NCBI GenBank assembly: GCA_021735655.1
Contig: JAIPGM010000002.1
Coordinates: 1-64,000 of the forward strand
Length of the DNA stretch: 64,000 bases
Source: Candidatus Omnitrophota bacterium
Lineage (GTDB): Bacteria; Omnitrophota; Gorgyraeia; Duberdicusellales; 4484-171
Reading direction: 5' to 3'
Positions 9 through 33,012 of this stretch are shown one piece after another. A program made the position numbers and the translations under genes. Each line of letters opens with the position of its first letter. The first letter of the stretch is position 1. Under the pieces are notes generated by a model. The model was not told the origin of the DNA. It did not search any database and was given only the letters and a program-made list of their open reading frames with translations.

Positions 9-2180
9 GTGGCAGATATAACAAATAACATGAGTTTGCGTAAGACCGGCATAAAGGTGGTTGGAGATATGCCCTGGGGATCGCATCTATGCCAGTTTTA
101 CCATACTAAAAGAGATTTGCTTGAAATACTCTTACCTTATTTTAAGGCCGGATTAAAGAATAACGAATTTTGTATGTGGGTGACTTCCGAGCCTCTAGGC
201 ACTAAAGAGGCAAAAGGCGCACTTAAGAAAGAGGTAAAAAACCTGGATAGGCTGATTAAAAAGGGGCAGATAGAGATACTGGATTATAGCCAGTGGTACA
301 CAAAGGGCGGCAGGTTCAATGCCGATAGAGTATTAGCCGGCTGGGTAGAGAAAGAGCAGCAAGCCTTAAAAAAAGGGTTCTCTGGCCTGCGTCTTACCGG
401 AAATACCTTCTGGCTGGAAAAGGCAGACTGGGAGAATTTTACCGAGTATGAAGCTAAGGTCAACAATACTATTGGCGGCCGCCGGATGCTGGCTATCTGT
501 ACTTATTCTCTGGATAGATGCAGCGCATCCCAGGTCATAGACGTTGTCAATAATCATCAGTTTGCCCTGATAAAACGCAAGGGCAGGTGGACTTCCGTTG
601 AAAGCTCATCGTACAGAACGGCAATAAATAATTTAGAAGAGATGAACCGTAGATATCAATTGCTTATTGACAATATACGTTTACATATCGCCGTGATAGA
701 CAAAACTGGGAAATTTACCGTGTGGAACAAATATTCGGAAGATTTATTCGGATATACAAAAAGTGAGGCCATTGGGAAGCTTAAGCCAGGGGACATACAT
801 ATTTCCCGTACGGATGCCGCAAGGGTTATCCGCGGCGCGAAAGAAAAAGGTATTTTTGATGATGAAGTTAAGTTAAGGCGCAAAAATGGCTCGCTTGTAG
901 ATGTGCATTTGGTTGTGGTGCCTAATAAAGATCACAAGGGTAATGTAATAAACTACCATGGATTTGGCGAGAACATCACCGAACGTAAGCATGCTGAAAG
1001 ATTTCTACGTCAATCACACCACGGGCTTGAAAAACGCGTTCAAGAGCGCACTCGAGAGCTAAAACAGCTAAACAAGGCTTTGGAAGCGGCAAAGGATAAT
1101 CTTAATAGAGCCCAACAAGTGGCACATATTGGAAGCTGGTATCTCGATATAGCGGATAATGCCTTAGCCTGGTCTGATGAAACCTATCACATATTTGGGT
1201 TAAATATAGGGTCACCGCTTGATTACGCGAAGTTTCTTGAGATCGTTCATCCGGAAGACAGGGAGTATGTTAATATAAGTTGGCAGAACGCCCTACGTCA
1301 AGGGTTCTATGATATAGAGCATCGTATAGTGGTGGCAGGGAGAATAAAATGGGTCAGAGAAAGCGCCCAAGTAGAATTTGATAAGAGAGGTAAGGCTATT
1401 AGGGGCATAGGCACGGTACAGGACATTACTGAACAGAAAGAGCATGAAAAGAATACCCGTAAGCTCCAGCAGGAATTAACTCACGTCTCACGGGTTACGA
1501 CGATGGGAGAACTTACCGCGGCCTTAGCACACGAACTTAACCAACCCCTCATGGCCATTATGAGCAACGCTCAGGCAGCACAGAGATTCCTGGCTAAGAG
1601 CAATCCGGATATAAATGAAATCAAAGAAATACTTTCTGATATTGTCAAAGACGATAAGCGGGCAAGTGATGTTATCAATAAGCTCAGAGCATTAATAAGA
1701 AAATCCGATATCGAGTTTACAATATTAAATATTAATGATGTTGTCAATGAAGTAGTCTCTCTTGTACACAGTGATATAGTTATAAGGAGTATAACCTTAA
1801 ATACAGAACTCAGTGACAAAAATCTTTTTGTGAACGGGGACCGGATACAGTTGCAGCAGGTTATTTTAAATCTTATTCTCAACAGTTTTGAGGCAACGAA
1901 AGATGTTGATTCCAAGAGGGTTCGTATTCGCACGGCAAAAGAGAATGATGAGTCGATTGTCGTTAGTTTTGAGGATGCGGGAACCGGAATTGATGAAGAA
2001 AACCTGAGTCGTATCTTTGAACCATTTTTCACGACTAAGAAAGAAGGCATGGGAATGGGGCTGGCGATTAATAAAGTGATTATTGAATCTCATGGCGGCA
2101 CCTTGTGGGCAGAGAATAATCCCGATAAAGGAGCGACGTTTTATTTTACTTTGCCCATAAGTAAGGAGTGTTCTAAATGA
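9..2180 (+). CDS. Sensor histidine kinase. N-terminal ~200 aa are a non-membrane sensory domain, possibly MEDS-like (GSHLCQFYH). It is followed by two PAS domains, HisKA and HATPase. The 5' end may lie upstream of the window.
   Basis: PAS-like stretches (FTVWNKYSEDLFGYTKSEAIG; IGSWYLDIADNALAWSDETYHIFGL). H-box TTMGELTAALAHELNQPL. ATPase G-boxes DAGTGIDEENLSRIFEPFFTTK and GMGMGLAI. The ORF opens with GTG at 9 with no in-frame stop upstream. Confidence 0.85.
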   Translation: MADITNNMSLRKTGIKVVGDMPWGSHLCQFYHTKRDLLEILLPYFKAGLKNNEFCMWVTSEPLGTKEAKGALKKEVKNLDRLIKKGQIEILDYSQWYTKGGRFNADRVLAGWVEKEQQALKKGFSGLRLTGNTFWLEKADWENFTEYEAKVNNTIGGRRMLAICTYSLDRCSASQVIDVVNNHQFALIKRKGRWTSVESSSYRTAINNLEEMNRRYQLLIDNIRLHIAVIDKTGKFTVWNKYSEDLFGYTKSEAIGKLKPGDIHISRTDAARVIRGAKEKGIFDDEVKLRRKNGSLVDVHLVVVPNKDHKGNVINYHGFGENITERKHAERFLRQSHHGLEKRVQERTRELKQLNKALEAAKDNLNRAQQVAHIGSWYLDIADNALAWSDETYHIFGLNIGSPLDYAKFLEIVHPEDREYVNISWQNALRQGFYDIEHRIVVAGRIKWVRESAQVEFDKRGKAIRGIGTVQDITEQKEHEKNTRKLQQELTHVSRVTTMGELTAALAHELNQPLMAIMSNAQAAQRFLAKSNPDINEIKEILSDIVKDDKRASDVINKLRALIRKSDIEFTILNINDVVNEVVSLVHSDIVIRSITLNTELSDKNLFVNGDRIQLQQVILNLILNSFEATKDVDSKRVRIRTAKENDESIVVSFEDAGTGIDEENLSRIFEPFFTTKKEGMGMGLAINKVIIESHGGTLWAENNPDKGATFYFTLPISKECSK

Positions 2181-2806
2181 GGCGGCCGCTTCCAATTGTA
2201 TTCATCGCCGACGATGATCCATCGGTGCGTAAAAGCTTGGAGAGGTTAATCAAGTCGGCGGGATTTAAAGTGGAGGCCTTTGCTTCGTCGGAAGAGTTCC
2301 TTCAACGGAAAATCCATAAAGGAGCCCCAGCTTGCTTAGTACTCGATGTGCGCATGCCGGGATTAAGCGGCATCGATCTTCAAGGAGAACTTGTTCGAAA
2401 GGGTATTTTGCTGCCGATCATATTTATTACCGGCCACGGTAGCATTCCTATGAGTGTTAAGGCGATGAAAAACGGCGCCGTAGATTTTTTACCAAAACCC
2501 TTTGGTGAAGAAGAACTGCTTTCAGCAATAGACCGGGCAATAGAAAAGTGCGGACAGATGCAAAAAAATGACGCGGAAAAGGCAAAAATCCAGCGCCGGG
2601 TCAAGACCCTTACCCCAAGAGAATACGAGTGTTTACGCTGGGTAATTACGGGAATGCTGAATAAACAGATTGCTCCTAGATTAGGTGTTACAGAGAAGAC
2701 GATTAAAGTTCATCGTGGTCGCCTGATGCATAAAATGCAAGCTGTATCGGTTGCCGACCTTGTCCGCCTTACCCAAAAGTGCGGAATAACCCCAGCCAAA
2801 AAGTAA
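2177..2806 (+). CDS. Response regulator, NarL/FixJ family (REC + LuxR-type HTH)
   Basis: REC motifs (IADDDPS, LVLDVRMPG, KPF). C-terminal LuxR HTH LTPREYECLRWVITGMLNKQIAPRLGVTEKTIKVHRGRLMHKM. Start overlaps the kinase stop by 4 nt. Confidence 0.9.
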   Translation: MRRPLPIVFIADDDPSVRKSLERLIKSAGFKVEAFASSEEFLQRKIHKGAPACLVLDVRMPGLSGIDLQGELVRKGILLPIIFITGHGSIPMSVKAMKNGAVDFLPKPFGEEELLSAIDRAIEKCGQMQKNDAEKAKIQRRVKTLTPREYECLRWVITGMLNKQIAPRLGVTEKTIKVHRGRLMHKMQAVSVADLVRLTQKCGITPAKK

Positions 2807-2817
2807 CTCGCCCCCTA

Positions 2818-2862
2818 TTGGACTAAGGTCCAATTTACAGCATTTCTTCACTCTGATATCAT
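2818..2862 (+). promoter_or_regulatory. Perfect 16-bp palindrome TTGGACTAAGGTCCAA abutting a sigma70-like promoter (TTTACA-17-TATCAT). A second copy lies at 13712-13756.
   Basis: Read directly: ttggactaaggtccaa tttaca gcatttcttcactctga tatcat. Nearly identical composite at 13712-13756 (ttggaccaaggtccaa tttaca N17 taatat). Confidence 0.55.
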
Positions 2863-2870
2863 CACTACTG

Positions 2871-3254
2871 ATGATCAAGATTAAACCAAAAATCTACATA
2901 GTTGACGATGATGAGTCCATTCGGCGAGCCCTGAGCCGTCTCATGAAATCTACCGGCTATGAGGCGGAAACGTTTGATTCGGCCCAGCTATTTTTGGACT
3001 CTGTTCCTCCCGATACTCAAGGTATCTTGATTTTGGATATTCGCATGCCGGATATAGACGGTTTTGAACTTCAAAGAAGATTAAACGTTTCGCGTTCTAA
3101 GTTGAGGATTATTTTTATTACCGCACACGCTCAGGCAGGAGACCGTGAACGTGCGATGAAAGCTGGCGCGAAAGGTTTTTTGCAGAAACCATTTAACGAA
3201 ACCTCGCTCTTAGATTTGATAAATTCTATATCCATTGAGAAGGATAAAAGATAG
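2871..3254 (+). CDS. Single-domain response regulator (CheY-like receiver)
   Basis: KIYIVDDDESIRRAL, ILILDIRMPDIDGFEL, IIFITAH, KPF. No output domain. Confidence 0.85.
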   Translation: MIKIKPKIYIVDDDESIRRALSRLMKSTGYEAETFDSAQLFLDSVPPDTQGILILDIRMPDIDGFELQRRLNVSRSKLRIIFITAHAQAGDRERAMKAGAKGFLQKPFNETSLLDLINSISIEKDKR

Positions 3255-3855: not shown

Positions 3856-4239
3856 ATGGAAAAGACATGGACATGCCAGGAGGATATTTTGTGCGGGGTT
3901 AATGAGCCAAAGGATAAAGCTAATCCTACAGACCTTGAGAAGAAACATATTCCTATAATAGAAGCACCGGACAAGGTTAAAAAGGATGAACTTTTTGAGA
4001 TTAAAATTGAGATCGGAAAGTTATTAGCCCACCCTAACGAACCGGCTCATTTTATAGAGTGGATCGAACTTTATTGTGGGCACACATTCTTAGGGAGAGC
4101 GTCTTTAAGCGGCGGTGCAAGCTATCCAACAGTGACTTTTCAGGTGAAACTAAGTCATGCTCACGGGCCGCTGAAAGCCTGGGGAAAATGTAATATACAT
4201 GGTTTGTGGGAAGGCCTGAAAACAATAACTGTAGAATAG
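3856..4239 (+). CDS. sor: Superoxide reductase (neelaredoxin-type, single-domain)
   Basis: Conserved SOR motifs EKKHIP, HPNEPAHFIEWIEL and CNIHGLWEG (His4-Cys iron site). Confidence 0.85.
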   Translation: MEKTWTCQEDILCGVNEPKDKANPTDLEKKHIPIIEAPDKVKKDELFEIKIEIGKLLAHPNEPAHFIEWIELYCGHTFLGRASLSGGASYPTVTFQVKLSHAHGPLKAWGKCNIHGLWEGLKTITVE

Positions 4240-4250
4240 GAGGTATCATA

Positions 4251-4439
4251 ATGAAAGCGATCGTAAATCAGGAAACATGTACAGGTTGTACTTTATGCGC
4301 TCAAGCCTGTCCGGATATCTTTGAAATGGATGGTGAAAAGGCAAAAGTTCTTGTTGACGTTGTAGCGAAAGATAAAGAAGAATGCAGTAAGAAGGCAGCC
4401 GATGAATGTCCGGTTACGGCCATATCTATAGAAGAATAA
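4251..4439 (+). CDS. Small single-cluster ferredoxin
   Basis: CTGCTLCAQACP ... CP cluster motif, 62 aa. GGAGG RBS before the ATG at 4251. The track ORF 4206 is an N-terminal over-extension. Confidence 0.75.
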   Translation: MKAIVNQETCTGCTLCAQACPDIFEMDGEKAKVLVDVVAKDKEECSKKAADECPVTAISIEE

Positions 4440-4455
4440 TGAAAGGAGGCGAGAG

Positions 4456-4881
4456 ATGGCGAAAATAACGAAAGAGAAACTGATTGAGCTTCTTAATAAG
4501 GACTTGGGTTTAGAGTATACCGCGTGTGTGCAGTATACCCAGCATCAAGGGGTCCTAAAAGGCGCGATGTATCAGAACATGCAGAAAGAGCTGGTTATCC
4601 ACGCCCAAGAAGAGCTCGCGCACGCGACAACGATTGCGGCTCAAATAGACTATTTGGGAGGCTTTCCGACCGTTGATATGCCGCTGCCTAAAACCTCTAA
4701 AGAAAACGAAACCATGCTGAAACAGGATCTAGAAGGGGAAAACGACGCTATTGCAAGGTATATAGTGAGGATAAAACAGGCTGAAGAACTGAATCTTTAT
4801 CACTTAGCCCAGCAGTTAAGAAATATCCTGGCTGTTGAGCAGGAACACGCTATGGATTTAGAGCAGGCCCTGGGTAAATAA
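4456..4881 (+). CDS. Ferritin-like diiron protein (Dps/rubrerythrin superfamily)
   Basis: Two E-x-x-H motifs (EELAH; EQEH) about 90 aa apart in a 141-aa helical protein. Confidence 0.55.
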   Translation: MAKITKEKLIELLNKDLGLEYTACVQYTQHQGVLKGAMYQNMQKELVIHAQEELAHATTIAAQIDYLGGFPTVDMPLPKTSKENETMLKQDLEGENDAIARYIVRIKQAEELNLYHLAQQLRNILAVEQEHAMDLEQALGK

Positions 4882-4883
4882 AA

Positions 4884-5096
4884 ATGGTTGTTTTGAAAAA
4901 AAAGAGAGCTAGACAAAAGGTGTTTCTTTATGGCCAGAACCTCAAGCCGGAAGATATTCTTATTTATCTACCAACTGCCTTTAGGCAGAAATTGACCAAA
5001 AGGCAAGCTAACTATCTTAAGCAGGCTTTTTTTAAAACGGTTCTAGCCTACCAAAAGAAAGAAGAGCAGGATTATTTAAATAAAATGCTGGTTTAG
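4884..5096 (+). CDS. Hypothetical small basic protein
   Basis: 70-aa ORF filling the gap between the ferritin-like gene and korA. No recognisable motif. Confidence 0.25.
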   Translation: MVVLKKKRARQKVFLYGQNLKPEDILIYLPTAFRQKLTKRQANYLKQAFFKTVLAYQKKEEQDYLNKMLV

Positions 5097-5104
5097 GTGA
5101 GAAG

Positions 5105-6769
5105 ATGCAAGAGTTATCTATATTGATCGGTGGCAAGGCCGGTTTTGGCATAGACCGTTCGGGTATGGTTTTAGGCCGGCTTTTAAACAGGCTGGGGTAT
5201 CGCATTTATATATACCGCGATTATCCTTCACTTATCCGTGGAGGGCACACCTTTTCTGTGATACGTGCCTCAAAAAACAGGATAGCTGCTTACGCTGACA
5301 AGGTGGATTTTGTTTTAGCTTTAAATAAGGAGACACTCGATTTACATAAAGATAGGCTAAAAAAAGATTGCATGTGTATTTATGATTCTGAACAAACAGA
5401 TGCAATGTCCGGTCTTTGTTGCCTGGGGCTACCATTGAGTAAGTTCCTTAAAATAGAAAAAGCGCCCGAGTTGATGCGTAATACTTGTATGCTTGGCGCA
5501 CTGACAAAAGCTATCGGCCTAGACTTTGAAATTTTAGAAGATGTCCTGAAAAAAGAGTTTTCTCAGAATGCCGATCTCAATATAAAAGTTGCCAGAAGGG
5601 GCTTTGAAGAAGCTAAAGAACTTATTAAGATAGATCCTTTGAATAGGGAAAGTTTGCCGTTACTTACTGGGAATCAGGCCATTGCCTTGGGATTGGTCAA
5701 AGGAGGCCTAAGGGCCTATGTTTCTTATCCGATGACTCCCAGTTCTCCGATATTACATTATCTGGCGAATGTGGCGGATGATTTTAACTTGGATGTGGTT
5801 CATCCGGAAAGCGAAATAAGCGTTATACTTATGGCGTTAGGTTACGCGTATGCCGGTAAGAAAGCGGCAGTAGGAACATCGGGCGGCGGTTTCTGCCTTA
5901 TGACCGAAGGCTTAAGTCTGAGCGGTATGGCTGAATTACCCGTTGTAATAGTCCTTGGCCAGCGGCCGGGCCCGTCAACGGGTCTGCCTACCTACTCCTC
6001 GCAGGGAGATTTACATTTTGCCTTGAGCGCCGGCCATGGTGAATTTACGCGTTTTGTTGTCGCGCCCGGTGACGCCGAAGAATCATATTACTGGTCGGCG
6101 ATGTCCATGAATATCAGTTGGAAATATCAGATCCCGGCTATAATTCTTACTGACAAAGAGTTAGGGGAAAGTACATCAAATTTCGATATATCGTTAATCG
6201 GAAATGTATCTGAAGAAGAAATAGCTATGCGGGATGGAAAATTGCCTTATAAAAGATATGCACTTACAGATAACGGCATTTCACCTTTAGCCTTCCCCCC
6301 GGTTAAGAATGAAATGATCAAAGTAAACAGCTATGAGCATGACGAATTTGGTATAACCACAGAAGTACCGGAAGAGACCATAAAGATGCAGGAAAAACGA
6401 TTGCGTAAAGAAAAATTTTTAGCAGAGGAACTTGAGGGGGTCAAGGCGGTAAATGTATATAATGGCAAGAGAGATGACATCGCACTTCTTTGTTGGGGTT
6501 CTAACAAGGGCGTCGGTGTTGAAATTGGAGAAAAGTTAGGAATAAAAGTCATTCAGCCGGTTGTGCTTAATCCTTTTCCAATAAAACAATTTCAGCAGGC
6601 TCTATCAGGAGTAAAAAAGCTTATTTCAGTAGAAAGCAACGCAACCGGCCAGCTTGCGAGACTCCTTAATAATTATGGTATTAGCGTTGATGAGAAAATT
6701 CTGAAATATGACGGCAGGCCATTTGGCATTGAAAGATTAGAAGAGAAGGTAAAAGAGGTGATAGCATGA
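5105..6769 (+). CDS. korA: 2-oxoacid:ferredoxin oxidoreductase, fused gamma-alpha subunit
   Basis: N-terminal gamma-like domain (GGKAGFGIDRSGMVLGRLL ... SLIRGGHTFSVIRAS) followed by an alpha domain (NQAIALGLVKGG ... YPMTPSS). Confidence 0.8.
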   Translation: MQELSILIGGKAGFGIDRSGMVLGRLLNRLGYRIYIYRDYPSLIRGGHTFSVIRASKNRIAAYADKVDFVLALNKETLDLHKDRLKKDCMCIYDSEQTDAMSGLCCLGLPLSKFLKIEKAPELMRNTCMLGALTKAIGLDFEILEDVLKKEFSQNADLNIKVARRGFEEAKELIKIDPLNRESLPLLTGNQAIALGLVKGGLRAYVSYPMTPSSPILHYLANVADDFNLDVVHPESEISVILMALGYAYAGKKAAVGTSGGGFCLMTEGLSLSGMAELPVVIVLGQRPGPSTGLPTYSSQGDLHFALSAGHGEFTRFVVAPGDAEESYYWSAMSMNISWKYQIPAIILTDKELGESTSNFDISLIGNVSEEEIAMRDGKLPYKRYALTDNGISPLAFPPVKNEMIKVNSYEHDEFGITTEVPEETIKMQEKRLRKEKFLAEELEGVKAVNVYNGKRDDIALLCWGSNKGVGVEIGEKLGIKVIQPVVLNPFPIKQFQQALSGVKKLISVESNATGQLARLLNNYGISVDEKILKYDGRPFGIERLEEKVKEVIA

Positions 6770-7617
6770 CTTCCCAGAACTTAGAAACTAACGCTAAAAA
6801 CACATGGTGCCCGGGCTGCGGTAATTTCGCTATTTTAAATTCCATAAAAGCGGTCTTAAAAAGTATCCGTGAAGAAGGAACGTCTTTAGAGAATGTGGTA
6901 TTGGTCTCCGGGATCGGTTGTCATGCTAAAATAGTTGACTATATAAACGCGAACAGTTTCTATTCTATTCACGGAAGAGCCACACCAGCAGCCGAAGGAA
7001 TTAAACTCGCGAATCCAAATCTTAAAGTTATAGGTTTTGCCGGTGACGGTGACGCTTATGGCGAAGGATTGGAACATCTGATATTCGCCGCTAAGCGGAA
7101 TATCGATATTACTATGATAATACATGATAATCGTGTATACGGGCTTACAACTGGCCAGTATACCCCTACATCTCCGCTTGGTTTTAAAGGCCGTTCGACT
7201 CCCGGGGGAAGTAAGGAACGCCCGATTAACCCTCTTGAACTTATGCTGGCCAGCGGCGCGACTTTTCTTGCCAGAGGTTTTTCACATGGAATAGAACAGC
7301 TCAAGAAAATATTTAAGGAAGCGATAAACCATAAGGGCTTTGCTTTGGTAGATGTACTTCAAGTTTGCGTTACCTTCTATAACATGTATGAGTACTACGA
7401 TAAACGAGTGTATGAACTAAAAGATCATGATGCAGGAGATTATGCCGAGGCGCTTAATAAAATAAAGGAATGGAATTATCACGATGATTCGAAGATAGCG
7501 CTTGGTGTATTATATAAAAAAGAAAGTCCGACTTTTGAAGAGGGGCTTTCATCATCCGGAAAAAGCGAAATAGACGTTGATTCAAACATAAAAAGCATAC
7601 TGGCTAAAACTATTTAA
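6766..7617 (+). CDS. korB: 2-oxoacid:ferredoxin oxidoreductase beta subunit (TPP-binding)
   Basis: WCPGCGNF plus GIGCH ... [12 protein letters not shown]-binding motif. Translationally coupled to korA (4-nt overlap). Confidence 0.85.
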
Positions 7618-7633
7618 TTGTGAAGGAGGGGAT

Positions 7634-8059
7634 ATGAGAGATCATGTTTATAAAGTTGTTGAGCTTGTCGGGTCTTCAAAAGCCACCATAGAAGATGCGG
7701 TTAAAAACGCTCTTTCCAAGTCGTCGGAATCTATCAGAAATTCACGATGGTTTGAGGTTAATCAAATAAGGGGGGAAATAGAAGACGGCGAAGTATCGTA
7801 TTGGCAGGTTGGGTTAAAGCTGGGGTTTACAGTCGAAGGGAGCAGCCGGAAAGAAGAGGTACCTGTCGAAACAAGTAAAAAAGCGGCAAAAACAGGGAAA
7901 TACCAATGCAAGGTTTGCAGCTATATCTATGATCCCGAAAAAGGTGACCCGGATAACGGCATAAAAGCGGGGACCTCTTTTAAAGATTTACCCGATGACT
8001 GGAAATGCCCGGAATGCGGTGTAAACAAGGATCAATTTGAAGAAATGAAGGGAGAGTAA
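7634..8059 (+). CDS. Dodecin - rubredoxin fusion protein
   Basis: N-terminal ~70 aa match the dodecin fold sequence ([12 protein letters not shown] ... [11 protein letters not shown] ... [13 protein letters not shown]). C-terminal ~50 aa are a rubredoxin ([14 protein letters not shown] ... WKCPECG). Confidence 0.75.
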
Positions 8060-8060
8060 T

Positions 8061-8915
8061 ATGGATAGAAGAATTACCTTGAAGTCAAAAACACTGTTTT
8101 TGGCAGGCAGGAGAGTCAAAGAAGGAGACTCGGCGTCACAATTTTATGCAGTTGATAGCGAGCTTAAGGAAGTTAAACTAACTGACTACAAAGATTCTAT
8201 AAAAATCATCACCTCTTTTCTTTCTCTGGATACACCTACTTGTAATTTGCAAGTTAAGGAATTTAACAAAAGGGCTAGCAAGTTGGCAGAAGATATTGTT
8301 GTTATCGGCATCAGCCAGGATTTACCTTTCGCCCAAAAGCGCTTTTGTGAGGCGAATAAAATCGAGAAGGTAATAACTCTTTCTGATTACAAAACCAACT
8401 CTTTTGGCATTAATTACGGCCTTTTGATTAAAGAACTGCGCCTTCTGGCCCGTGCGGTTATTATTGTAGATAAAAACAATGTCATTCGTTATGTTTCGAT
8501 TGTTCAAGAGGCAAGTGATGAGCCGGATTACCAGTCAGCGCTAAAGGCACTAAAAGATGTGATCGAAAAACCATTTCTTAAGGGATCCCAAGAGAGGCCT
8601 TCTCATTGTCTTCCCTGTGAAGCCGGTACCCCACCGCTTAAAGAGGGCCGCATAGAGCAGTTAATGGCTACTGTTGAGGGCTGGGAACTTATCGAAGGCA
8701 AGAAAATAAAAAAGACTTTTAAATTCAAAGATTTTATTGAGGCCAAATATTTTTTGGATATTATTAGCGTCATTGCCGAAGAGCAGGGCCATCATCCTAA
8801 CATCACGATTATTTATAATAAAGTAACGATTACGCTTACCACTCACGCTATCGGCGGGCTTAGCGATAATGATTTTATTATGGCTCAGATCATAGATGAA
8901 ATAGGGGGGGCCTGA
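8061..8915 (+). CDS. Thiol peroxidase (Tpx-like peroxiredoxin) fused to pterin-4a-carbinolamine dehydratase
   Basis: Tpx-like region with peroxidatic Cys context (SLDTPTCNLQ) and resolving Cys (KRFCEA). C-terminal PCD/DCoH motif EEQGHHPNITIIYNKVTITLTTH. Confidence 0.7.
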   Translation: MDRRITLKSKTLFLAGRRVKEGDSASQFYAVDSELKEVKLTDYKDSIKIITSFLSLDTPTCNLQVKEFNKRASKLAEDIVVIGISQDLPFAQKRFCEANKIEKVITLSDYKTNSFGINYGLLIKELRLLARAVIIVDKNNVIRYVSIVQEASDEPDYQSALKALKDVIEKPFLKGSQERPSHCLPCEAGTPPLKEGRIEQLMATVEGWELIEGKKIKKTFKFKDFIEAKYFLDIISVIAEEQGHHPNITIIYNKVTITLTTHAIGGLSDNDFIMAQIIDEIGGA

Positions 8916-10201
8916 TGAAAAGAGTCATAGCGATATATCGTTGGGGACTCATATTGATAACCGGATTTGTTTTATTATTTTTGCCGAAACTTGCCCAAGC
9001 CGAGATACACGCTGAAACTATAGAGTATAAAGACGGCGAGGTTATTTTGGAAGGGTATCTTGCTTATGATGACTCAATAAAAGAAAAACGTCCCGGGGTT
9101 TTAGTCGTGCATGAGTGGACAGGCATAAACGATTATATAAAACAACGTGTTAATCAATTGGCAGAAGAAGGTTATATAGCTTTTGCGGCTGATATTTATG
9201 GTAAAAGCATCAGACCGCAAAATAAGGAAGAAGCGGCTAAGCAGGCGGGCATTTACCGTGCCGACCGTAAACTCATGCGCAGAAGGGTACAGGCGGGTTT
9301 GGCCTGCCTTAAAAAAAATCCGATCACCGACCCTTCGCGTATTGCCGCGATAGGTTATTGTTTCGGCGGTGGCGTGGTCTTGGAGCTTGCCCGAAGCGGA
9401 GCTGATGTCGAGGGAGTGGTAAGCTTTCATGGCAACCTGGATACTCCTAACCCGGAAGACGCCGGAATGATAAAAGCGAAAGTGCTGGTTCTTCATGGTG
9501 CCGATGATCCCCATGTTCCAATGAGACAGGTAAAAGATTTTGAGAGGGAAATGGACCGGGCAAATGTGGATTGGCGCATGGTAAGTTACAAAGGCGCTGT
9601 CCATAGTTTTACGAATCCGGCGTCCGGAAACGATCCTTCCACGGGCGCGGCTTACAACAAAGAAGCGGATATGAATTCATGGAAAGAAATGATTGCCTTC
9701 TTTAATAAAATATTTCACGATTATAATTGGCCTTTAGAGGCTATGGCAAATATTACCGATACTAGTGGTAAAGAAGTAGGGAAGGTGCTGTTTAGGGAAA
9801 ACGAAGGCCGCGGAGTAACCATAGATTTAAAGCTACATTCATTTTTACCGGGCAGGCACGCTTTTCATATACATGAATTTCCTGTTTGTGATGCGCCGGA
9901 CTTTAAATCAGCAGGAGGGCATTTTAATCCTTATGGAAAACAGCATGGGTTTCTGAACGAAAAAGGCCACCATGCCGGGGATTTGCCAAATATCATTGTA
10001 GAGGAAAATGGTAATTGCCAGATGTCTTTCACTACGACACAGATAACTTTAAGAAAAGATAAGGAAAATTCTATATTAAGAAAGTTTGGGACATCTCTGG
10101 TGATTCATGAGCTGCCGGATGATTATTTCACCGATCCGGCCGGAGGCGGCGGCAAGAGGCTTGCCTGCGGAACAATAAAAGAAGTGGAGGTAAAAAGGTG
10201 A
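8915..10201 (+). CDS. Secreted dienelactone hydrolase - Cu/Zn superoxide dismutase fusion
   Basis: Signal peptide. DLH-family core (VLVVHEWTGIN ... GYCFGGG ... LVLHGADD). C-terminal SodC motifs (HAFHIHEFPVCD ... GGHFNPYGKQHG ... HAGDLPNI ... LVIHELPDD ... RLACGTI). Confidence 0.75.
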   Translation: MKRVIAIYRWGLILITGFVLLFLPKLAQAEIHAETIEYKDGEVILEGYLAYDDSIKEKRPGVLVVHEWTGINDYIKQRVNQLAEEGYIAFAADIYGKSIRPQNKEEAAKQAGIYRADRKLMRRRVQAGLACLKKNPITDPSRIAAIGYCFGGGVVLELARSGADVEGVVSFHGNLDTPNPEDAGMIKAKVLVLHGADDPHVPMRQVKDFEREMDRANVDWRMVSYKGAVHSFTNPASGNDPSTGAAYNKEADMNSWKEMIAFFNKIFHDYNWPLEAMANITDTSGKEVGKVLFRENEGRGVTIDLKLHSFLPGRHAFHIHEFPVCDAPDFKSAGGHFNPYGKQHGFLNEKGHHAGDLPNIIVEENGNCQMSFTTTQITLRKDKENSILRKFGTSLVIHELPDDYFTDPAGGGGKRLACGTIKEVEVKR

Positions 10202-10713
10202 AGATAGCAGTATTAGTAGAGGATCATTATCAGGTTTTGGAGGTTTGGTATCCATATTTACGCCTTAAGGAAGAAGGTATAGAAACGGTTTTCGTCGGAC
10301 CGGGACGGAAAAAAGAATACGGTAGCAAGGAAGGCTATCCTGCCCCCGAAGAGACATCGGTAGAAACAGCTAGTGTGGATGATTTTGACGGGGTGATTGT
10401 ACCCGGCGGTTACGCTCCTGACTTGTTGCGAAGGTCAAAGAAGATAGTCGATTTTGTGAAAAATATAAATAAACAAAAGAAACTTGTTGCCGCCATATGC
10501 CATGCCGGTTGGGTCTTGGTTTCCGCCGGCATATTGAAGGGAAAGAAGGCGACCTGTTTTTCCGCCATAAAAGACGACGTCGTCAATGCCGGCGCGGAAT
10601 TTATCGACAAGGCGGTCGTTGTTGATGGCAATATAGTAACATCCCGCACTCCGTATGATCTTGGGCCGTTTTGCCGAGAGATCATAAAATTTCTAAAGAG
10701 TAAGGGACGTTAA
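10198..10713 (+). CDS. DJ-1/PfpI family protein
   Basis: AAICHAGWVL nucleophile-elbow motif. 171 aa. Confidence 0.8.
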   Translation: MKIAVLVEDHYQVLEVWYPYLRLKEEGIETVFVGPGRKKEYGSKEGYPAPEETSVETASVDDFDGVIVPGGYAPDLLRRSKKIVDFVKNINKQKKLVAAICHAGWVLVSAGILKGKKATCFSAIKDDVVNAGAEFIDKAVVVDGNIVTSRTPYDLGPFCREIIKFLKSKGR

Positions 10714-10747
10714 AAACAAATTTGTAGTTTAGCGGAGGAGGTAGATC

Positions 10748-11497
10748 ATGGATAAAGCCGATAGATTAGCCGGCCTTTTAAAGCGGCTCAATACCGGGGA
10801 AAATCCGGAAAGCGTGAAGAAGGAGGCCAAAGAATTCTTGGCGGCCCTTGACCCGAAAGACCTTTCATTGGCAGAGCAGAAGTTGATTGAGGCCGGGCTT
10901 TCGTATGAAGACTTACGTAACCTCTGTTGTGTCCACATGGAGGTACTTAAGGGCCAGCTGGAGAATATGAAGATAAAATTAAGCCCGGGGCATGTGATCC
11001 ATACAATGGTTGCCGAGCACGATATGATTTTGGGGTTTTTAGACCAACTTGAGAAGGTGAATAACAACATTCAGAAAATGGACCGATTCAACAGTGACAG
11101 GGAAGAATTTAAAGAATTAAAGCATATTGCCGAGCATCTTGTCGGTTCCGAACCGCATCACAAGCGTGAAGAGGATGTCGTATTCCCTGAGATGGAAAAG
11201 AAAGGGGTCTCGGCGCCGCAGAAGATAATGAGGATGGAGCATGAAGTACTGCGCGCCCGCAAGAAAGACCTTCTTGGTTTGGTGTCGAAGGCGCAGGTGA
11301 TGGATTTTAACGAATTCAAAAGTGAACTCGCGGCAACAGCGGGTTATATAATGTTTACTCTGCGTGAGCATATTTTCAAGGAAAACAATATTCTTTACCC
11401 CACGGCCATTGAAATCATTGATGAACAAGAAAGCTGGGATAGAATGAAGAAAGAGTGCGATACGATAGGGTACTGCTGCTTTACTCCGGAGCGGTGA
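10748..11497 (+). CDS. Hemerythrin-like (HHE cation-binding) / DUF438 domain protein
   Basis: His/Glu-rich helices (HTMVAEHDMI, HIAEHL, EHEVL, REHIFKEN) typical of a hemerythrin-like four-helix bundle. Confidence 0.55.
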   Translation: MDKADRLAGLLKRLNTGENPESVKKEAKEFLAALDPKDLSLAEQKLIEAGLSYEDLRNLCCVHMEVLKGQLENMKIKLSPGHVIHTMVAEHDMILGFLDQLEKVNNNIQKMDRFNSDREEFKELKHIAEHLVGSEPHHKREEDVVFPEMEKKGVSAPQKIMRMEHEVLRARKKDLLGLVSKAQVMDFNEFKSELAATAGYIMFTLREHIFKENNILYPTAIEIIDEQESWDRMKKECDTIGYCCFTPER

Positions 11498-11690
11498 AGG
11501 CGGCCGGCGTCCGATTCCATCCCTGCCCGCGTGCTAGCCTGAAAATGCGCTCATCATTAAAGGGGCGGATGAAAAAGATTCAGAACACCCCATAAAAGAA
11601 ATGGTACGTTTCGGGGTAGAGGGAATAACTTTTGCCGAGGCTGTCAAAGATTCCTAAGTTGTTGATATCTTAAGGGGGGGGTGAGACGAT

Positions 11691-12629
11691 ATGGCTGATG
11701 ATTACGACGTGATTATCATCGGTGGCGGCCCTGCGGGATTAACCGCAGGTATCTACGCCGCCCGGACCGGATTATATACGCTGGTCATCGACAAGAATAT
11801 TCTTGCCGGTGCATTAGGCTCTACGTCAAGAATAGAAAATTACCCCGGCATTCTTAAACCGTGTTCCGGCCGGACGCTGATCGGTAAACTCCGGCGGCAG
11901 GCTCAAAAGTTTGGGGCTGAGCTTGTGCGAGAGCGCGTGTTACACACCGAACTGGAGGGTCCCGTCAAAAAGGTCGTTTCCGAAGCCCGGGAATACCGCT
12001 CTCGTAGCCTGATTGTCGCCAGCGGGGCCATGGGGAGGAAGGCTTCGGTGGACGGCGAAAAGGAGTTCCTGGGCAAAGGGGTGAGTTACTGCGCGGTATG
12101 TGATGCGCCTTTCTTTCGCGGCAAGAAGGTTGCCCTGGTGGGAGGTATCGAGGAAATAAGTCAGGAGATCGGGGTTATCGCCAAATTCGCCAGTGCGATA
12201 TATATTGTAAGTCTTCAGGCGATAGATAGTCCAGGGAAGAAGACGATCGACTTCGCTGATAACCTTACCGTTTTCACTAACCACCGGTTGAGCAAGATCT
12301 ATGGGGCAAGGGCCGTTGAGGGTGTTGAAATAATCTCGGCCGGGGGCCAGCGAAAACAGATCGCGGTCGATGGGGTATTTATGTATCTGCACGGCAATCG
12401 GCCGCTGGTCGATTTCCTTGGTGATCATTTGAAAACTGGAAGCGATCGCTGTTTGATTGTAAATAGAGAGGATATGTCTACTTCCCTCGAAGGGGTGTTC
12501 GCTGCCGGCGATGTTATATGTACCAGGATCCGCCAGGCTGTGGTCGCGGCTTCAGAGGGGTGCATTGCCGCTCTTTCGGCGGAGAAATATATTATGCAGA
12601 GGCGGTCGCCTCGTGCGCAATGGCACTGA
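11691..12629 (+). CDS. Thioredoxin reductase-like FAD/NAD(P) disulfide oxidoreductase (GC-rich copy)
   Basis: DVIIIGGGPAGLTAGIYAAR, redox CAVCDA, second Rossmann GKKVALVGGIE. Local GC is well above the flanking sequence. Confidence 0.75.
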   Translation: MADDYDVIIIGGGPAGLTAGIYAARTGLYTLVIDKNILAGALGSTSRIENYPGILKPCSGRTLIGKLRRQAQKFGAELVRERVLHTELEGPVKKVVSEAREYRSRSLIVASGAMGRKASVDGEKEFLGKGVSYCAVCDAPFFRGKKVALVGGIEEISQEIGVIAKFASAIYIVSLQAIDSPGKKTIDFADNLTVFTNHRLSKIYGARAVEGVEIISAGGQRKQIAVDGVFMYLHGNRPLVDFLGDHLKTGSDRCLIVNREDMSTSLEGVFAAGDVICTRIRQAVVAASEGCIAALSAEKYIMQRRSPRAQWH

Positions 12630-13862: not shown

Positions 13863-14816
13863 ATGAGTAATTTAAGGACAATCAAAGAACGAATATTCAA
13901 AGCGAAGGATTTCGTCATCGCCTGCCACCGGAATCCCGATGGCGATTGCATTGGTTCTCTTTTAGCCTTAGGTTTGGGCTTGAAAACTTTAAAAAAAAGA
14001 GTGATTATGGTTTCTCAAGACGGGGTGCCTTTAAGCTATAGAGGGCTACCGGGGGCCAATAAGATAACTAGAAGATTAGGGAAAGTGCCGGATATGGCCA
14101 TAACCGTGGATTGCAACTCAAAAGAAATGGTTGGCAGGCCGTTTAAGACTATACGGAAAGCAAAGTATTTATTAGAAATAGACCACCATGAATTTAGGGA
14201 ACCATATGGCAACATGTTTCTCATAGACACAAAAGCGGCGTCTGTAGGCGAAATGGTTTATAAGTTATTGTATTATTTAAGAATAGGCATAACCAAAGAA
14301 ATAGCCGAAAATATATTAACTTCTATAATTGTTGAGACTAATTCATTCCGGCTTCCTACAGTAAAGCCGGCTACTTTTAACATTTGTTACAAACTCCAGA
14401 AAACCGGAGTGGACTTTCATAAAATTTCCGAAACAGTTTATTGGTCGAAAACTAAACAAGCAGTAATACTTTCCGGCATCTGTATGTCCAAACTCGAATT
14501 TTCGCGAAACGGTCAAATAGCCTGGTCAATAGTATCAAAAAAAGATTTTTCCAGCGTGAAGGGCAGGGACGAAGACGTAGACCCCGTGGCTAACGATATA
14601 CTTGCGATAAAGGCGATCAAGATAGCAGTTTTATTCCGGGAAAAGAGCCAAAATATTTTAAGGGTAAGTTTAAGAGCAAAAGGAGGCATAAATGTTGCCT
14701 CGCTTGCTTATAAATACGGCGGCGGCGGCCATTTTGATTCTGCCGGGTGCCAGATCACTAATACTAAAAAAGAGATCAGAGGTTTTATCGAAGCGGCCAA
14801 GCGGTTATTGAGATGA
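13863..14816 (+). CDS. nrnA: DHH/DHHA1 phosphoesterase (NrnA-like oligoribonuclease / pAp phosphatase)
   Basis: CHRNPDGDCIGS (DHH motifs), IDHHEF, C-terminal GGGGH DHHA1 motif. Confidence 0.8.
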   Translation: MSNLRTIKERIFKAKDFVIACHRNPDGDCIGSLLALGLGLKTLKKRVIMVSQDGVPLSYRGLPGANKITRRLGKVPDMAITVDCNSKEMVGRPFKTIRKAKYLLEIDHHEFREPYGNMFLIDTKAASVGEMVYKLLYYLRIGITKEIAENILTSIIVETNSFRLPTVKPATFNICYKLQKTGVDFHKISETVYWSKTKQAVILSGICMSKLEFSRNGQIAWSIVSKKDFSSVKGRDEDVDPVANDILAIKAIKIAVLFREKSQNILRVSLRAKGGINVASLAYKYGGGGHFDSAGCQITNTKKEIRGFIEAAKRLLR

Positions 14817-15427
14817 AACGTATACTTATTGTTTTTGCCAAAGAGCCTCAGGAAGGCAGGGTAAAAACCCGGCTGTTGGACTGTTTATCCGCTAGAGAAT
14901 GCCTTAAGCTTTATAAGAAGTTGTTAAAAAATACGGTCAGCTTAGCCAGAAAAGTAAAATGTAGCGGAAGAATTATGGCTTATGATTCTTATAATCAAAG
15001 GGCGCCTTTTCTCGAAAGAATAGCTTCGGATTTTACATTTTATAAACAGGCTGGAAGAGGCCTCGGAGCAAGAATGTTTGATGTTTTTAAAGCGATTCTT
15101 AAAAGTAATACTAAAGCGGTGATTATCGGCTCGGATTCACCGAATCTACCGATAAATTATATAGACCGAGCTTTTGAGAAACTTAGTAAAAACGATCTTG
15201 TCTTAGGCCCCGCCGATGACGGCGGCTATTATCTCATTGGCCTTAAACAGCCATGTAAAAAATTATTCGAAAATATAAAATGGAGCTCTGGTACGGTGTT
15301 CGATAGAACGGTCAAGAAGGCAAAAAAACTAAAGAAGAAGACCACTGTTTTGGATTATTGGTATGACATAGATGAGCCAAAAGATTTAAAATATATTAGA
15401 AAAAAGCCTGAAAGTGTTGATCGATGA
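14813..15427 (+). CDS. DUF2064 (TIGR04282-type) glycosyltransferase-partner protein
   Basis: RILIVFAKEPQEGRVKTRL ... GPADDGGYYLIG. Confidence 0.65.
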   Translation: MKRILIVFAKEPQEGRVKTRLLDCLSARECLKLYKKLLKNTVSLARKVKCSGRIMAYDSYNQRAPFLERIASDFTFYKQAGRGLGARMFDVFKAILKSNTKAVIIGSDSPNLPINYIDRAFEKLSKNDLVLGPADDGGYYLIGLKQPCKKLFENIKWSSGTVFDRTVKKAKKLKKKTTVLDYWYDIDEPKDLKYIRKKPESVDR

Positions 15428-16098
15428 AAGTATCAATAATTATACCAACCTATAATGAAGAAAATAGTATCGAGAGTACTTTAGGGCCCTTGATCGGTGA
15501 AAATGGTTGTGAAGTCATTGTTGTGGATGGATATAGCAAGGATAGGACAAAGGAGATCGTCCGTAGCTACCCGGTTATTTTTAAGCAGGCTGGTAAAAAT
15601 AGAGCTAATCAGCTCAATGCGGGCGCCGGCATTGCCGGCGGGGATGTTTTAGTGTTTCTTCACGCTGATTGTATTTTGGAAAAAGGTGGCTTGCCGGCAA
15701 TTATAAATAGTGTTAAAAAGGGGTTTATCGGCGGATGTTCCTCGCAAAGAATAAATTCCTCGGCTTTAATTTATAGGTTCATTGAGGCGTCAGGAAATAT
15801 CCGGGCAAAGCTCTCTCATATCTTTTACGGCGATCAAGCCATTTTTGTCAGAAGAGACATATTCCAAAAAATTGGCGGCTTTGACGATGTCGCCCTGTTT
15901 GAGGATATTATATTTTCCCGAAAACTTAAAAAATACGGCAAGACCTGTACTTTAAAGAATAAGATATTTACATCTGCGCGGCGCTGGGAAAAACAGGGAA
16001 TCATCAAGACGACCTTGATTAACTGGCTGGTCAGTATTGGATTTTTTTTTGGTATCGCCCCGCATATTTTAAAGAAAATATATTCTGAGGTACGGTGA
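15424..16098 (+). CDS. Family 2 glycosyltransferase (TIGR04283-like)
   Basis: VSIIIPTYNEE ... VVDGYSKDRT ... FLHADC. Translationally coupled to the DUF2064 gene. Confidence 0.75.
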   Translation: MKVSIIIPTYNEENSIESTLGPLIGENGCEVIVVDGYSKDRTKEIVRSYPVIFKQAGKNRANQLNAGAGIAGGDVLVFLHADCILEKGGLPAIINSVKKGFIGGCSSQRINSSALIYRFIEASGNIRAKLSHIFYGDQAIFVRRDIFQKIGGFDDVALFEDIIFSRKLKKYGKTCTLKNKIFTSARRWEKQGIIKTTLINWLVSIGFFFGIAPHILKKIYSEVR

Positions 16099-16101
16099 GT
16101 T

Positions 16102-17532
16102 ATGAAATATGATTACGATTTGATTATTCTAGGCGGAGGAGCTGCCGGATTGTTTGCTGCCAGTGTGGCTAATACTTTGGGAGCAAAGGTAGCGATAGTT
16201 GAAAAGCATAGATTAGGCGGGGATTGTACCTGGTACGGATGCATACCGTCTAAAGCGCTCATTAGATCAGCACAGGTTGCTCATAATCTATGCTGCCCGG
16301 AGAAGTTTGGTTTATCTTTAAAGAGGGCCTGCGGCATCGAAGCCGGTTCGGTGATGGCGCATGTCCGGGATGTAACTATTGAAATCGCCGCTCATCATAA
16401 GCCCGAGGATCTAAGAAAGAGAGGGATCGAGATCATCTTCGGTAGCCCTCATTTTATAGATGAAGCAACCGTTAAGGTCAGCGATAAGATATATAAAGCG
16501 AAAAAGTATATCATTTGTACAGGTTCTCATCCGTTTATTCCAACCATAGAGGGCTTAAGGGAAATAGATTATTTGACTAACGAAACCATATTTGATTTAA
16601 AAGAGCTGCCAGGAAGCTTAATTGTTTTAGGCGGCGGGCCGATCGGCATAGAGCTGGCCCAGAGCCTTAAAAGATTGGGTGTTGAAGTCTCGGTAGTGGA
16701 GATGTTAGATAGAATTGTTCCTAAAGAAGACAGAGAAGTAGCAGAAGTTTTGGAGCAAAAGCTAAAAGCCGAAGGCATCAGGCTTATGACATCTCATAAG
16801 GCGGTTAATTTCGTCAAAAATACTGATAAAATAACAGTAACCCTGGAAGATAAGGGAAAAAATAAATCAGAAATCAGCGCCGATAAAGTTTTGGTCGCGG
16901 TGGGAAGGGCTGCGAATATAGCGGGGCTTGATTTAGAACGCTGCGGTGTAAATCACGATAAAAAATCAATTGAAGTAAACAAATTTTTGCAGACAACCAA
17001 CAAGAATATTTTTGCAGCCGGAGATGCGGTCGGCCCTTATATGTTCAGCCATGTAGCAGCTTATCAAGCTTCGATCTGCGTAAGAAATGCGATGTTTAAA
17101 AGATTAGCCTGGCAGAAAGCGAGTTATGAAAATATTGCCTGGGCTACTTTTACCGAACCGGAAGTCGCCCATTTGGGATTGACCGAAGAAGAAGCGAGAA
17201 AAAAATACAAGAAAATAAAAATTTACAAGTCGGATTATATTAAGTCAGACCGGGCGGTTACTGATTTAGAAAAGGACGGTTTAGTCAAAGTTATCTGCGA
17301 GCGAAACGGCAATATAATAGGGGCGCATATTGTTGGAGCCGCTGCCGGAGAAATTATCCAGGGCCTTTCAATAGCTAAATCCCAGAAAATACCTTTAAGT
17401 AAAATTGCCCAAACAATTTTTGTTTACCCTACTTTATCAGAGCTGATCAAGAAAACTGCGGCCTTGAATTTAGTCGAAAAGATGCAAAACCGGCTTATAA
17501 AGTTAGCTCTTAAAATAATGAGGCAAAATTGA
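16102..17532 (+). CDS. Class I pyridine nucleotide-disulfide oxidoreductase (mercuric reductase / dihydrolipoyl dehydrogenase-like)
   Basis: DLIILGGGAAG, redox-active GGDCTWYGCIPSK, second Rossmann LIVLGGGPIGIE, dimerisation-domain HP motif. Confidence 0.75.
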   Translation: MKYDYDLIILGGGAAGLFAASVANTLGAKVAIVEKHRLGGDCTWYGCIPSKALIRSAQVAHNLCCPEKFGLSLKRACGIEAGSVMAHVRDVTIEIAAHHKPEDLRKRGIEIIFGSPHFIDEATVKVSDKIYKAKKYIICTGSHPFIPTIEGLREIDYLTNETIFDLKELPGSLIVLGGGPIGIELAQSLKRLGVEVSVVEMLDRIVPKEDREVAEVLEQKLKAEGIRLMTSHKAVNFVKNTDKITVTLEDKGKNKSEISADKVLVAVGRAANIAGLDLERCGVNHDKKSIEVNKFLQTTNKNIFAAGDAVGPYMFSHVAAYQASICVRNAMFKRLAWQKASYENIAWATFTEPEVAHLGLTEEEARKKYKKIKIYKSDYIKSDRAVTDLEKDGLVKVICERNGNIIGAHIVGAAAGEIIQGLSIAKSQKIPLSKIAQTIFVYPTLSELIKKTAALNLVEKMQNRLIKLALKIMRQN

Positions 17533-17533
17533 T

Positions 17534-18205: not shown

Positions 18206-18214
18206 AGGTTTTTC

Positions 18215-32958: not shown

Positions 32959-33012
32959 TCGATAGGCGATGGGGTTCGCCGTTAACCGCCTCAACAGGCT
33001 GATAACTCCTAC
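32958..33012 (+). promoter_or_regulatory. Fluoride riboswitch (crcB RNA motif)
   Basis: ataGGCGATGGggTTCGCCgttAACCGCCtcaacaggCTGATAACTCCTAC matches the crcB-motif consensus, directly upstream of the crcB RBS. Confidence 0.85.

Follow-up and report, generated by a model that had tools for sequence, protein, structure and literature searches.

The window analysed here comprises the first 64,000 nucleotides (positions 1-64,000, forward strand) of contig JAIPGM010000002.1 from the metagenome-assembled genome (MAG) GCA_021735655.1 of a Candidatus Omnitrophota bacterium. Within a row of genes for defence against oxygen and reactive oxygen species (ROS), it contains a gene in which an alpha/beta hydrolase of the dienelactone hydrolase (DLH) family and a Cu,Zn superoxide dismutase (SOD) of the SodC type are encoded one after the other in the same reading frame. 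A reading of the sequence alone had proposed that a signal peptide, a DLH-family hydrolase and SodC are joined here in one gene, and this is borne out by the list of open reading frames (ORFs), by the Pfam models, by a manual analysis of the signal peptide and by the existence of a second lineage with the same arrangement. The DLH-SodC fusion is real, conserved and rare; it represents a new domain architecture built from two known enzyme families and carries no sign of new chemistry. The gene and its parts are the following.

8915-10201, + strand: DLH-SodC fusion gene, a single ORF of 428 amino acids with an ATG start and without internal stop
8915-9001, + strand: Sec-type signal peptide, residues 1-29, with predicted cleavage between AQA and EIHAET (manual n/h/c-region analysis)
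9002-9724, + strand: DLH-family alpha/beta hydrolase domain, residues 30-270 (Pfam match to residues 46-266, nucleotides 9050-9712)
9359-9361, + strand: Cys149, nucleophile of the predicted triad, in the motif GYC149FGG
9506-9508, + strand: Asp198 of the triad, in the motif HGADD198P
9602-9604, + strand: His230 of the triad, in the motif AVH230SF
9725-9754, + strand: fast-evolving linker of about 10 residues (approximately 271-280, NWPLEAMANI)
9755-10177, + strand: Cu,Zn superoxide dismutase domain, residues approximately 281-421 (Pfam match to residues 289-421, nucleotides 9779-10177)

The fusion gene and its two domains

The frame is uninterrupted in the ORF list as well as in the raw sequence. 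Its ATG, preceded on the 5' side by a G-rich run resembling a Shine-Dalgarno sequence, overlaps the stop codon of the upstream gene (ATGA, 8913-8917), and its own stop codon overlaps the GTG of the downstream gene (GTGA, 10198-10201). In the domain scan, both halves of the protein score far above the Pfam cut-offs: residues 46-266 match DLH with an E-value of 1e-51 (176 bits, cut-off 21) and residues 289-421 match Sod_Cu with an E-value of 9e-41 (139.8 bits, cut-off 28.9). The NCBIfam models recover the same two halves, through the SodC equivalogs (SodCCaul, 113.4 bits against a cut-off of 250; SodCMycob, 58.1 against 230; PRK10290, 48.9 against 165) and the YghX family hydrolase model NF041440 (86.8 against 460), in all cases below the curated cut-offs, and neither half is therefore an equivalog of a named protein. 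An identical protein is present in GenBank as MCF7907446.1, from a Candidatus Omnitrophota MAG and a 322-kb contig. Since the record is named only 'dienelactone hydrolase family protein', surveys of oxygen defence in the Omnitrophota that go by protein names will miss the SOD.

Residues 1-29 (MKRVIAIYRWGLILITGFVLLFLPKLAQA, followed by E) read by eye as a basic n-region, a hydrophobic core with a Kyte-Doolittle mean of up to 2.9 and an A-x-A site; manual inspection of the same residues revealed neither a lipobox cysteine nor a twin arginine. This manual reading is backed by the stand-alone hydrolase relatives, since all 25 of those inspected show the layout of a Sec signal and a conserved mature start of the form x(I/V)(H/K/R)TExVEY. 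Thus, AVSA is followed by EIHTETVEY in the relative P0039, and AQA is followed by EIHAETIEY in the window protein. The segment is modelled as a lone helix (residues 2-27). Judged by these manual criteria, namely a Sec-type signal and an AQA site, the SodC half would be delivered to the periplasm.

The match of the hydrolase half to the DLH profile extends over positions 2-216 of 217. The G-x-C-x-G-G nucleophile motif and the Asp and His of the triad are all present and were aligned to those of the structurally characterised enzymes P91 and ScDLH; the Cys-Asp-His triad is invariant in 25 of 25 stand-alone DLH relatives and in the second fusion lineage, and Glu67 is likewise intact in both fusion lineages. 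We take Cys149, Asp198 and His230 to correspond to Cys123, Asp171 and His202 of the dienelactone hydrolase ClcD, and Glu67 to its Glu36. The modelled domain has the alpha/beta-hydrolase fold, with target-normalised TM-scores of 0.94-0.95 to P91 (4zi5) and ScDLH (7jiz). By its sequence, the DLH half is assigned to the Cys-His-Asp branch of the DLH family; its context and predicted localisation are not those of a ClcD-type enzyme, and by its score it is not a YghX equivalog. An identity as a true dienelactone hydrolase (EC 3.1.1.45) was considered and rejected in view of the signal peptide, the ROS-defence neighbours and an identity of only about 20% to ClcD, and a domain scan of the window revealed no clc/tfd-type genes of a chlorocatechol or maleylacetate pathway among the neighbours of the fusion.

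The SodC half matches the Sod_Cu profile over positions 3-133 of 133. Its copper ligands are His318, His320 and His398 together with the bridging His336, and these four align to His46, His48, His120 and His63, respectively, of human SOD1 (the assignment was confirmed against variants of the Bacillus subtilis SOD-like protein YojM). The zinc ligands are the bridging His336, His344, His353 and Asp356, the counterparts of human His63, His71, His80 and Asp83. Arg415 and Cys418 align directly to human Arg143 and Cys146. The disulfide would be formed by Cys325 and Cys418; Cys325 belongs to the disulfide loop and does not vary among bacterial relatives, with an offset relative to the human Cys57 loop in the MAFFT alignment. 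None of the ten functional positions varies among the 20 stand-alone relatives compared, and the Greek-key beta-barrel of the model superimposes on solved Cu,Zn-SODs with TM-scores of 0.81-0.89. The sequence-only reading had called this domain complete with its Cu/Zn ligand histidines, and on alignment none of the ligands is missing; as far as sequence and predicted fold can be assessed in silico, the C-terminal half has every feature of a Cu,Zn-SOD. An additional cysteine of the domain, Cys368 (nucleotides 10016-10018, 'GNC'), is present in both fusion lineages and in 7 of the 20 stand-alone relatives, all seven being among the closest ones, and is missing from more distant SodCs.

The AlphaFold model of the fusion was built on a hand-repaired alignment (A4) with signal-trimmed SodC sequences; in an earlier mixed MAFFT alignment (A2) with full-length single-domain relatives, two-thirds of the SodC sequences had been aligned against the DLH domain, and that alignment was discarded. 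The model has a mean pLDDT of 91.7 and a pTM of 0.73. The pLDDT is mostly 85-98 in the block of the SodC domain and falls to 83-85 in the linker. A structure search with this model found no PDB chain that spans both domains.

Recurrence and rarity of the architecture

A second fusion lineage, represented by P0002 and its 90%-identity cluster, is 63% identical to the window protein, aligns with it without gaps over 428 columns and keeps all catalytic residues. The cluster consists of seven full-length members of 428 or 434 amino acids, found in assemblies from Logan, ENA and JGI (anaerobic-digester metagenomes among them) on contigs of up to 94 kb. A single ORF in the window and a gap-free counterpart of 428 residues in an independent lineage show that hydrolase and SOD share one gene. 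How far the two lineages have diverged was calculated with our own Nei-Gojobori script as proportions of synonymous (pS) and nonsynonymous (pN) differences, as follows.

Synonymous sites, all regions: pS about 0.8, saturated
Signal peptide: pN 0.51
DLH domain: pN 0.197
Linker: pN 0.42
SodC domain: pN 0.211

The saturation of synonymous sites combined with the low pN of both domains means that the fusion is old and that its two halves are similarly constrained. The linker, by comparison, is only 40% identical between the lineages, and its pN is to be set against about 0.20 in the domains.

The rarity of the architecture, also proposed from the sequence alone, is well supported among close relatives, although the survey has blind spots. 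With the full-length protein as query, the best 120 of 7,986 significant matches include no more than two 90%-identity clusters with both Pfam domains; the remaining clusters in this set are secreted DLH proteins of about 260 amino acids, 60-75% identical, from Omnitrophota, Zixibacteria, cyanobacteria and others. The 120 best relatives of the SodC half are all single-domain proteins of 116-228 amino acids. An exhaustive HMMER search of 1.84 billion cluster representatives gave no two-domain protein among its best 150 matches, but that list ends at about 211 bits and the cluster of the query itself has a single-domain representative, so fusions can hide in it. A scan of 185,579 GTDB species-representative genomes, which relied on literal query peptides, returned 59 loci and no fusion, and did not recover the source genome. 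The metagenome scan with near-literal peptide patterns added one further fusion contig, which belongs to the second lineage. When the SodC half or a junction query of 145 residues was used in word-indexed searches, the known fusions were not among the matches, and these searches were not used to judge rarity. A literature search for a DLH-SOD fusion, for SOD in Omnitrophota and for multi-domain SodC gave nothing relevant, and no description of a DLH-SodC protein was found.

All multi-stretch matches in the representative search were tandems of a single domain. Tandem DLH-DLH proteins are plentiful in public data, with 2-4 copies in 500-1077 amino acids (representative matches P0241-P0384), and tandem SodC proteins contain 2-10 domains in up to 1748 amino acids. 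The metagenome loci L089 and L130, fusion candidates whose tblastn alignments ran past residue 300 (as did that of L104), proved to contain plain DLH genes of 258 and 274 amino acids.

The oxygen-defence gene row and the origin of the fusion

The fusion gene is surrounded by the following genes.

9-3254, + strand: MEDS-PAS histidine kinase and two response regulators, one LuxR-type and one single-domain, ahead of the ROS island
3856-12629, + strand: oxygen/ROS-defence gene row as a whole
3856-4239, + strand: superoxide reductase (SOR)
4456-4881, + strand: ferritin-like protein
5105-7617, + strand: 2-oxoacid:ferredoxin oxidoreductase (OFOR)
7634-8059, + strand: dodecin-rubredoxin fusion (dodecin being a flavin-storage fold), also present at 4894-5331 of locus L007
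8061-8915, + strand: fusion of thiol peroxidase (Tpx) and pterin-4a-carbinolamine dehydratase (Tpx-PCD), with Redoxin/AhpC-TSA at residues 20-161 and the dehydratase at residues 192-281
10198-10713, + strand: DJ-1/PfpI protein
10748-11497, + strand: DUF438-hemerythrin (HHE) protein
11691-12629, + strand: thioredoxin-reductase-like (TrxR-like) flavoprotein

The genes between 5105 and 11497 overlap or are at most 34 nucleotides apart; the limits of the operon are not defined by our promoter and terminator scan, whose counts are at chance level. A syntenic row is also found in L006/L007, L149 and L069. In L006/L007, from an unclassified bacterium, a stand-alone SodC that is 70% identical to the SodC of the window occupies the slot after Tpx-PCD; ahead of it stand the kinase, regulator, hemerythrin, TrxR-like, OFOR, dodecin-rubredoxin and Tpx-PCD genes known from the window. 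In the second fusion lineage (L149, L150 and L069), it is the fusion that directly follows Tpx-PCD. Similar trios of a kinase and two regulators precede the islands in L006 (1-2257) and L005 (1979-4907), and the trio of the window may regulate the ROS island in response to oxygen or redox state.

Several details of these rows deserve mention in their own right. The Tpx-PCD fusion, an unusual one in itself, is kept in all syntenic relatives (L007 5324-6199, L149 9148-10008, L150 181-1041 and L069 1740-2615). At the position of the dodecin-rubredoxin gene, only a rubredoxin was called in L006 and L149. The islands of L006, L009 and L149 have plain hemerythrin genes, as opposed to the DUF438-hemerythrin of the window. 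In the second lineage, which comes from anaerobic digesters, multicopper-oxidase genes follow the fusion (L149 11284-20642, L069 3858-13249): a protein of 2253 amino acids with multicopper-oxidase domains, whose start overlaps the stop of the fusion, and two more multicopper-oxidase-like genes. For an anaerobe, such a quantity of secreted copper enzyme is striking.

The sequence-only reading had considered a copper-dependent SOD alongside an iron SOR notable in an apparent anaerobe. The pairing is present and the fermentative genes of the window (pta-ackA and OFOR) fit an anaerobic lifestyle, but the pairing is not unusual since it recurs in related anaerobes: in L009, another Omnitrophota MAG, sodC adjoins the SOR gene directly in an island that also contains DJ-1, hemerythrin, ferritin and OFOR genes. 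Close relatives of this SodC are found in MAGs of Omnitrophota, Elusimicrobia, Syntrophales and Chitinivibrionales. A periplasmic copper SOD combined with a cytoplasmic iron SOR is a recurring design in such anaerobes and not a peculiarity of the window. In L008 (5370-8535), the gene of the stand-alone SodC P0124, which is 66% identical, is located 16 nucleotides downstream of that for a YHS-HMA P-type ATPase of the copper-exporter type, and this arrangement suggests a dedicated copper supply to periplasmic SOD in the clade.

The N-terminus of the fusion indicates how it could have been formed. Its signal peptide and first six mature residues follow the pattern of the DLH family, stand-alone DLH relatives stop one or two residues past '...IFHD', i.e., where the linker of the fusion starts, and stand-alone SodC relatives carry signal peptides of their own. 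An N-terminus of the DLH type thus points to a secreted hydrolase that was joined onto mature SodC. In the simplest history, the order of whose events we infer, a sodC gene with its own signal peptide would first have stood after Tpx-PCD, as it does in L007; a gene of a secreted DLH would then have been inserted ahead of it, and the DLH gene would finally have been fused in frame to mature SodC with the loss of the SodC signal peptide. The fusion would have arisen once, with both halves kept functional since. A neighbour-joining tree of SodC domains has support of at most 37% and resolves neither the sisterhood of the two fusion lineages nor the branching order.

The nearest stand-alone SodC, P0121, is 72% identical over the SodC domain and is encoded by L002 (GCA_036681025.1, JAXDEL011559426.1), a contig of 819 bp that aligns to the window (blastn) in three pieces.

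L002 4-157: window 8865-9018, 77% nucleotide identity
L002 160-618: window 9735-10193, 76% nucleotide identity
L002 651-708: window 10586-10643, 78% nucleotide identity
Window 9019-9734, + strand: segment missing from L002, net 714 nucleotides (238 codons, in frame), which corresponds exactly to the DLH domain

L002 contains, in this order, the end of Tpx-PCD, a signal peptide of the fusion type, the residues DVQSET (compare EIHAET of the fusion) and the SodC domain. Most of the DJ-1/PfpI gene is absent, and only a remnant matching window 10586-10643 is left. From its sequence, this one short contig appears to descend from a fusion ancestor by secondary loss of the DLH domain; either this is so, or the pattern is a product of short-contig assembly and does not reflect a real loss of domain and gene.

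Further annotated features of the window lie downstream, on the + strand. The row at 13863-20224 contains a DHH/DHHA1 phosphoesterase, a DUF2064/CofC-like protein, a GT2 glycosyltransferase, a pyridine-nucleotide-disulfide oxidoreductase with its dimerisation domain, a VTT/DedA membrane protein and a 669-residue fusion of radical SAM, DUF3641 and SAM methyltransferase domains, DUF3641 being presumably a mark of ArsS-type arsenosugar radical SAM enzymes. An MsrA-MsrB fusion of 338 amino acids (20567-21583), which unites the methionine sulfoxide reductases A and B in a common architecture, fits the theme of oxidative-damage repair. At 32956-33423, a fluoride riboswitch (Rfam RF01734, 62.7 bits) is found directly 5' of a crcB fluoride channel gene, an ordinary arrangement, and at 34414-36046 DUF6088 and an AbiEii nucleotidyltransferase form a type IV toxin-antitoxin pair of the abortive-infection type.

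Joint or independent action of the two halves

We consider it most probable, with a probability of roughly 0.62, that the gene encodes a Sec-exported bifunctional periplasmic protein, a Cys-hydrolase and a Cu,Zn-SOD of single fusion origin whose halves act independently. After cleavage between AQA and E, the N-terminal domain would be a metal-free hydrolase of the P91/ScDLH branch with a Cys149-His230-Asp198 triad, and the C-terminal Cu,Zn-SOD would clear superoxide outside the cytoplasmic membrane, while SOR, rubredoxin, Tpx, hemerythrin and the TrxR-like flavoprotein, the operon's cytoplasmic products, would handle oxygen species inside the cell. The benefit of the fusion would then consist in one signal peptide, one promoter and 1:1 co-export rather than in a shared reaction. 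The independence of the halves is suggested by their relatives: among 42 loci (8 kb or longer) with stand-alone DLH genes and 42 with SodC genes, not one contains the other partner, and the DLH loci are nearly free of ROS genes. Elsewhere, then, stand-alone relatives of one half do not adjoin those of the other; a functional coupling is thus unsupported, and the halves most likely act independently.

Several points weigh against this interpretation. The independence of the halves is argued from a missing association and is not a demonstration. The two nearest stand-alone DLH genes are exceptions to the scarcity of ROS genes: that of P0004, the closest (73% identical, L005), shares its island with genes for SOR, pirin, DJ-1 and OsmC and for a similar two-component system, and that of P0003 is located near glyoxalase and OsmC genes. 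A role of this sub-branch of DLH in stress defence is conceivable, and the island of P0004 hints at it. The pTM of the two-domain model may reflect a defined packing of the domains against each other. Export and cleavage are predicted from a manual reading of the signal, while metal loading and content and the SOD and hydrolase (esterase) activities are predicted from residues; in addition, no gene for a copper exporter or a copper chaperone was found in the 64-kb window.

It seems unlikely that the two domains form one functional unit, in which the thiol hydrolase would act on a compound of oxidative stress (such as an oxidised lipid ester, or else a redox-cycling quinol in lactone or ester form) and the SOD would clear the local superoxide, so that proximity itself would be selected. 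Such a unit would agree with the short linker of fixed length, kept without gaps across a divergence that saturates synonymous sites, with the place of the gene inside a ROS-defence operon, with the SOR, pirin, DJ-1, OsmC and glyoxalase genes near the closest stand-alone DLH genes, and with the pTM of 0.73. However, the linker evolves fast, the 42 DLH and 42 SodC loci show no DLH-SodC adjacency and almost no ROS genes, L002 appears to have dropped DLH with SodC kept, and the DLH branch is without a known substrate (bioRxiv 10.1101/2025.10.30.685675). Slightly more doubtful is a coupled periplasmic detoxification module, which would hydrolyse a redox-active ester or lactone of the quinol or oxidised-lipid type and quench the superoxide arising from it on the spot; if true, this would give the P91-like DLH branch its first physiological assignment.

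It is improbable that the SodC half is not a working SOD but an SOD-like Cu/Zn-binding module as in YojM, or that it acts on a different substrate, for instance sulfide. In favour of this, anaerobic-digester samples point to an anoxic, probably sulfidic habitat in which copper would be scarce, the nearest solved structures are those of YojM, the NCBIfam SodC equivalog scores are below the cut-offs (113 against 250 bits), and sulfide-bound SOD structures exist in the PDB (8iq0, 8iq1). Yet the defect of YojM consists in the loss of two copper-ligand histidines, both of which are present here, as they are in the double mutant that is the top match; the ten functional positions are invariant in both fusion lineages as well as in the 20 relatives, and relatives adjoin a Cu-ATPase or multicopper oxidases. 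Still harder to accept is an idle hydrolase half that would serve SodC as an export carrier, a spacer or an oligomerisation module. The DLH half does supply the signal peptide and has no known substrate, but its triad and Glu67 are intact in both lineages, its pN is as low as that of SodC, and a carrier of 240 residues is needless since stand-alone SodC relatives have signal peptides of their own. An artefact, i.e., a sequencing or assembly error (lost stop, frameshift) that ran two neighbouring genes together in a metagenome-assembled genome whose exact protein is known from one contig, is excluded for practical purposes by the same architecture, length and junction in a 63%-identical lineage from assemblies of different samples and by a junction that contains no stop, second signal peptide or intergenic remnant.

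Both halves belong to textbook enzyme families, and no new chemistry is implied by the preferred reading of an exported protein with two independent activities. Structures have been solved and activities engineered in the P91-like DLH branch, yet it has no known natural function, and a long-kept fusion in an oxygen-stress operon is among the few physiological hints for it. The locus is also a clean example of domain gain, with a secreted DLH lending its signal peptide to SodC, and of an apparent later loss, at one operon position.

Comparison with known systems

The closest solved relatives of the DLH half are P91 and ScDLH/m3DLH/SfDLH/SaDLH (4zi5, 7jiz, 7jka, 8vb3, 9n2w), with E-values of 2e-52 to 1e-43, about 40% identity, TM-scores of 0.91-0.95 and the same Cys-His-Asp triad. 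Unlike the window protein, these enzymes are single-domain, and none of them is fused to SodC. They are carboxyl-esterases and lactonases with promiscuous phosphotriesterase activity and without an assigned natural function (bioRxiv 10.1101/2025.10.30.685675). ClcD of Pseudomonas knackmussii (1din) has the same fold and triad, and its homology is detected by both sequence and structure searches. It is, however, a cytoplasmic enzyme of the chlorocatechol pathway with about 20% identity, whereas the DLH half of the window carries a signal peptide and is without genes of such a pathway.

For the SodC half, the nearest solved sequence and structure is YojM of B. subtilis (1s4i, 1u3n; engineered 1xtl, 1xtm), with an E-value of 3e-36, 41% identity over the Foldseek structural alignment and a target-normalised TM-score of 0.89 for the modelled domain. 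In wild-type YojM, Tyr88 and Pro104 replace two copper-ligand histidines, whereas the window protein has His in both columns, and its best PDB match is the double mutant 1xtm, in which both histidines are restored. A copper-site-deficient SOD-like protein of the YojM type was accordingly rejected as an identity for this half, as both of the missing ligands are present in it. The multi-domain SodC of Deinococcus radiodurans (9m58/9m59, a chain of 441 amino acids) provides a precedent for a bacterial SodC joined to another domain. Its SodC part is N-terminal (chain residues 5-159), in contrast to the C-terminal SodC of the window, and its extra residues, about 280 in number, gave no match to the DLH half in our searches. 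The periplasmic SodC of bacteria (PF00080) has, like the fusion, a signal for export, the full set of Cu/Zn ligands, the catalytic Arg, the disulfide and the Greek-key barrel; the SodC half of the fusion differs from it in having no signal peptide of its own and a hydrolase domain of 240 residues in front.

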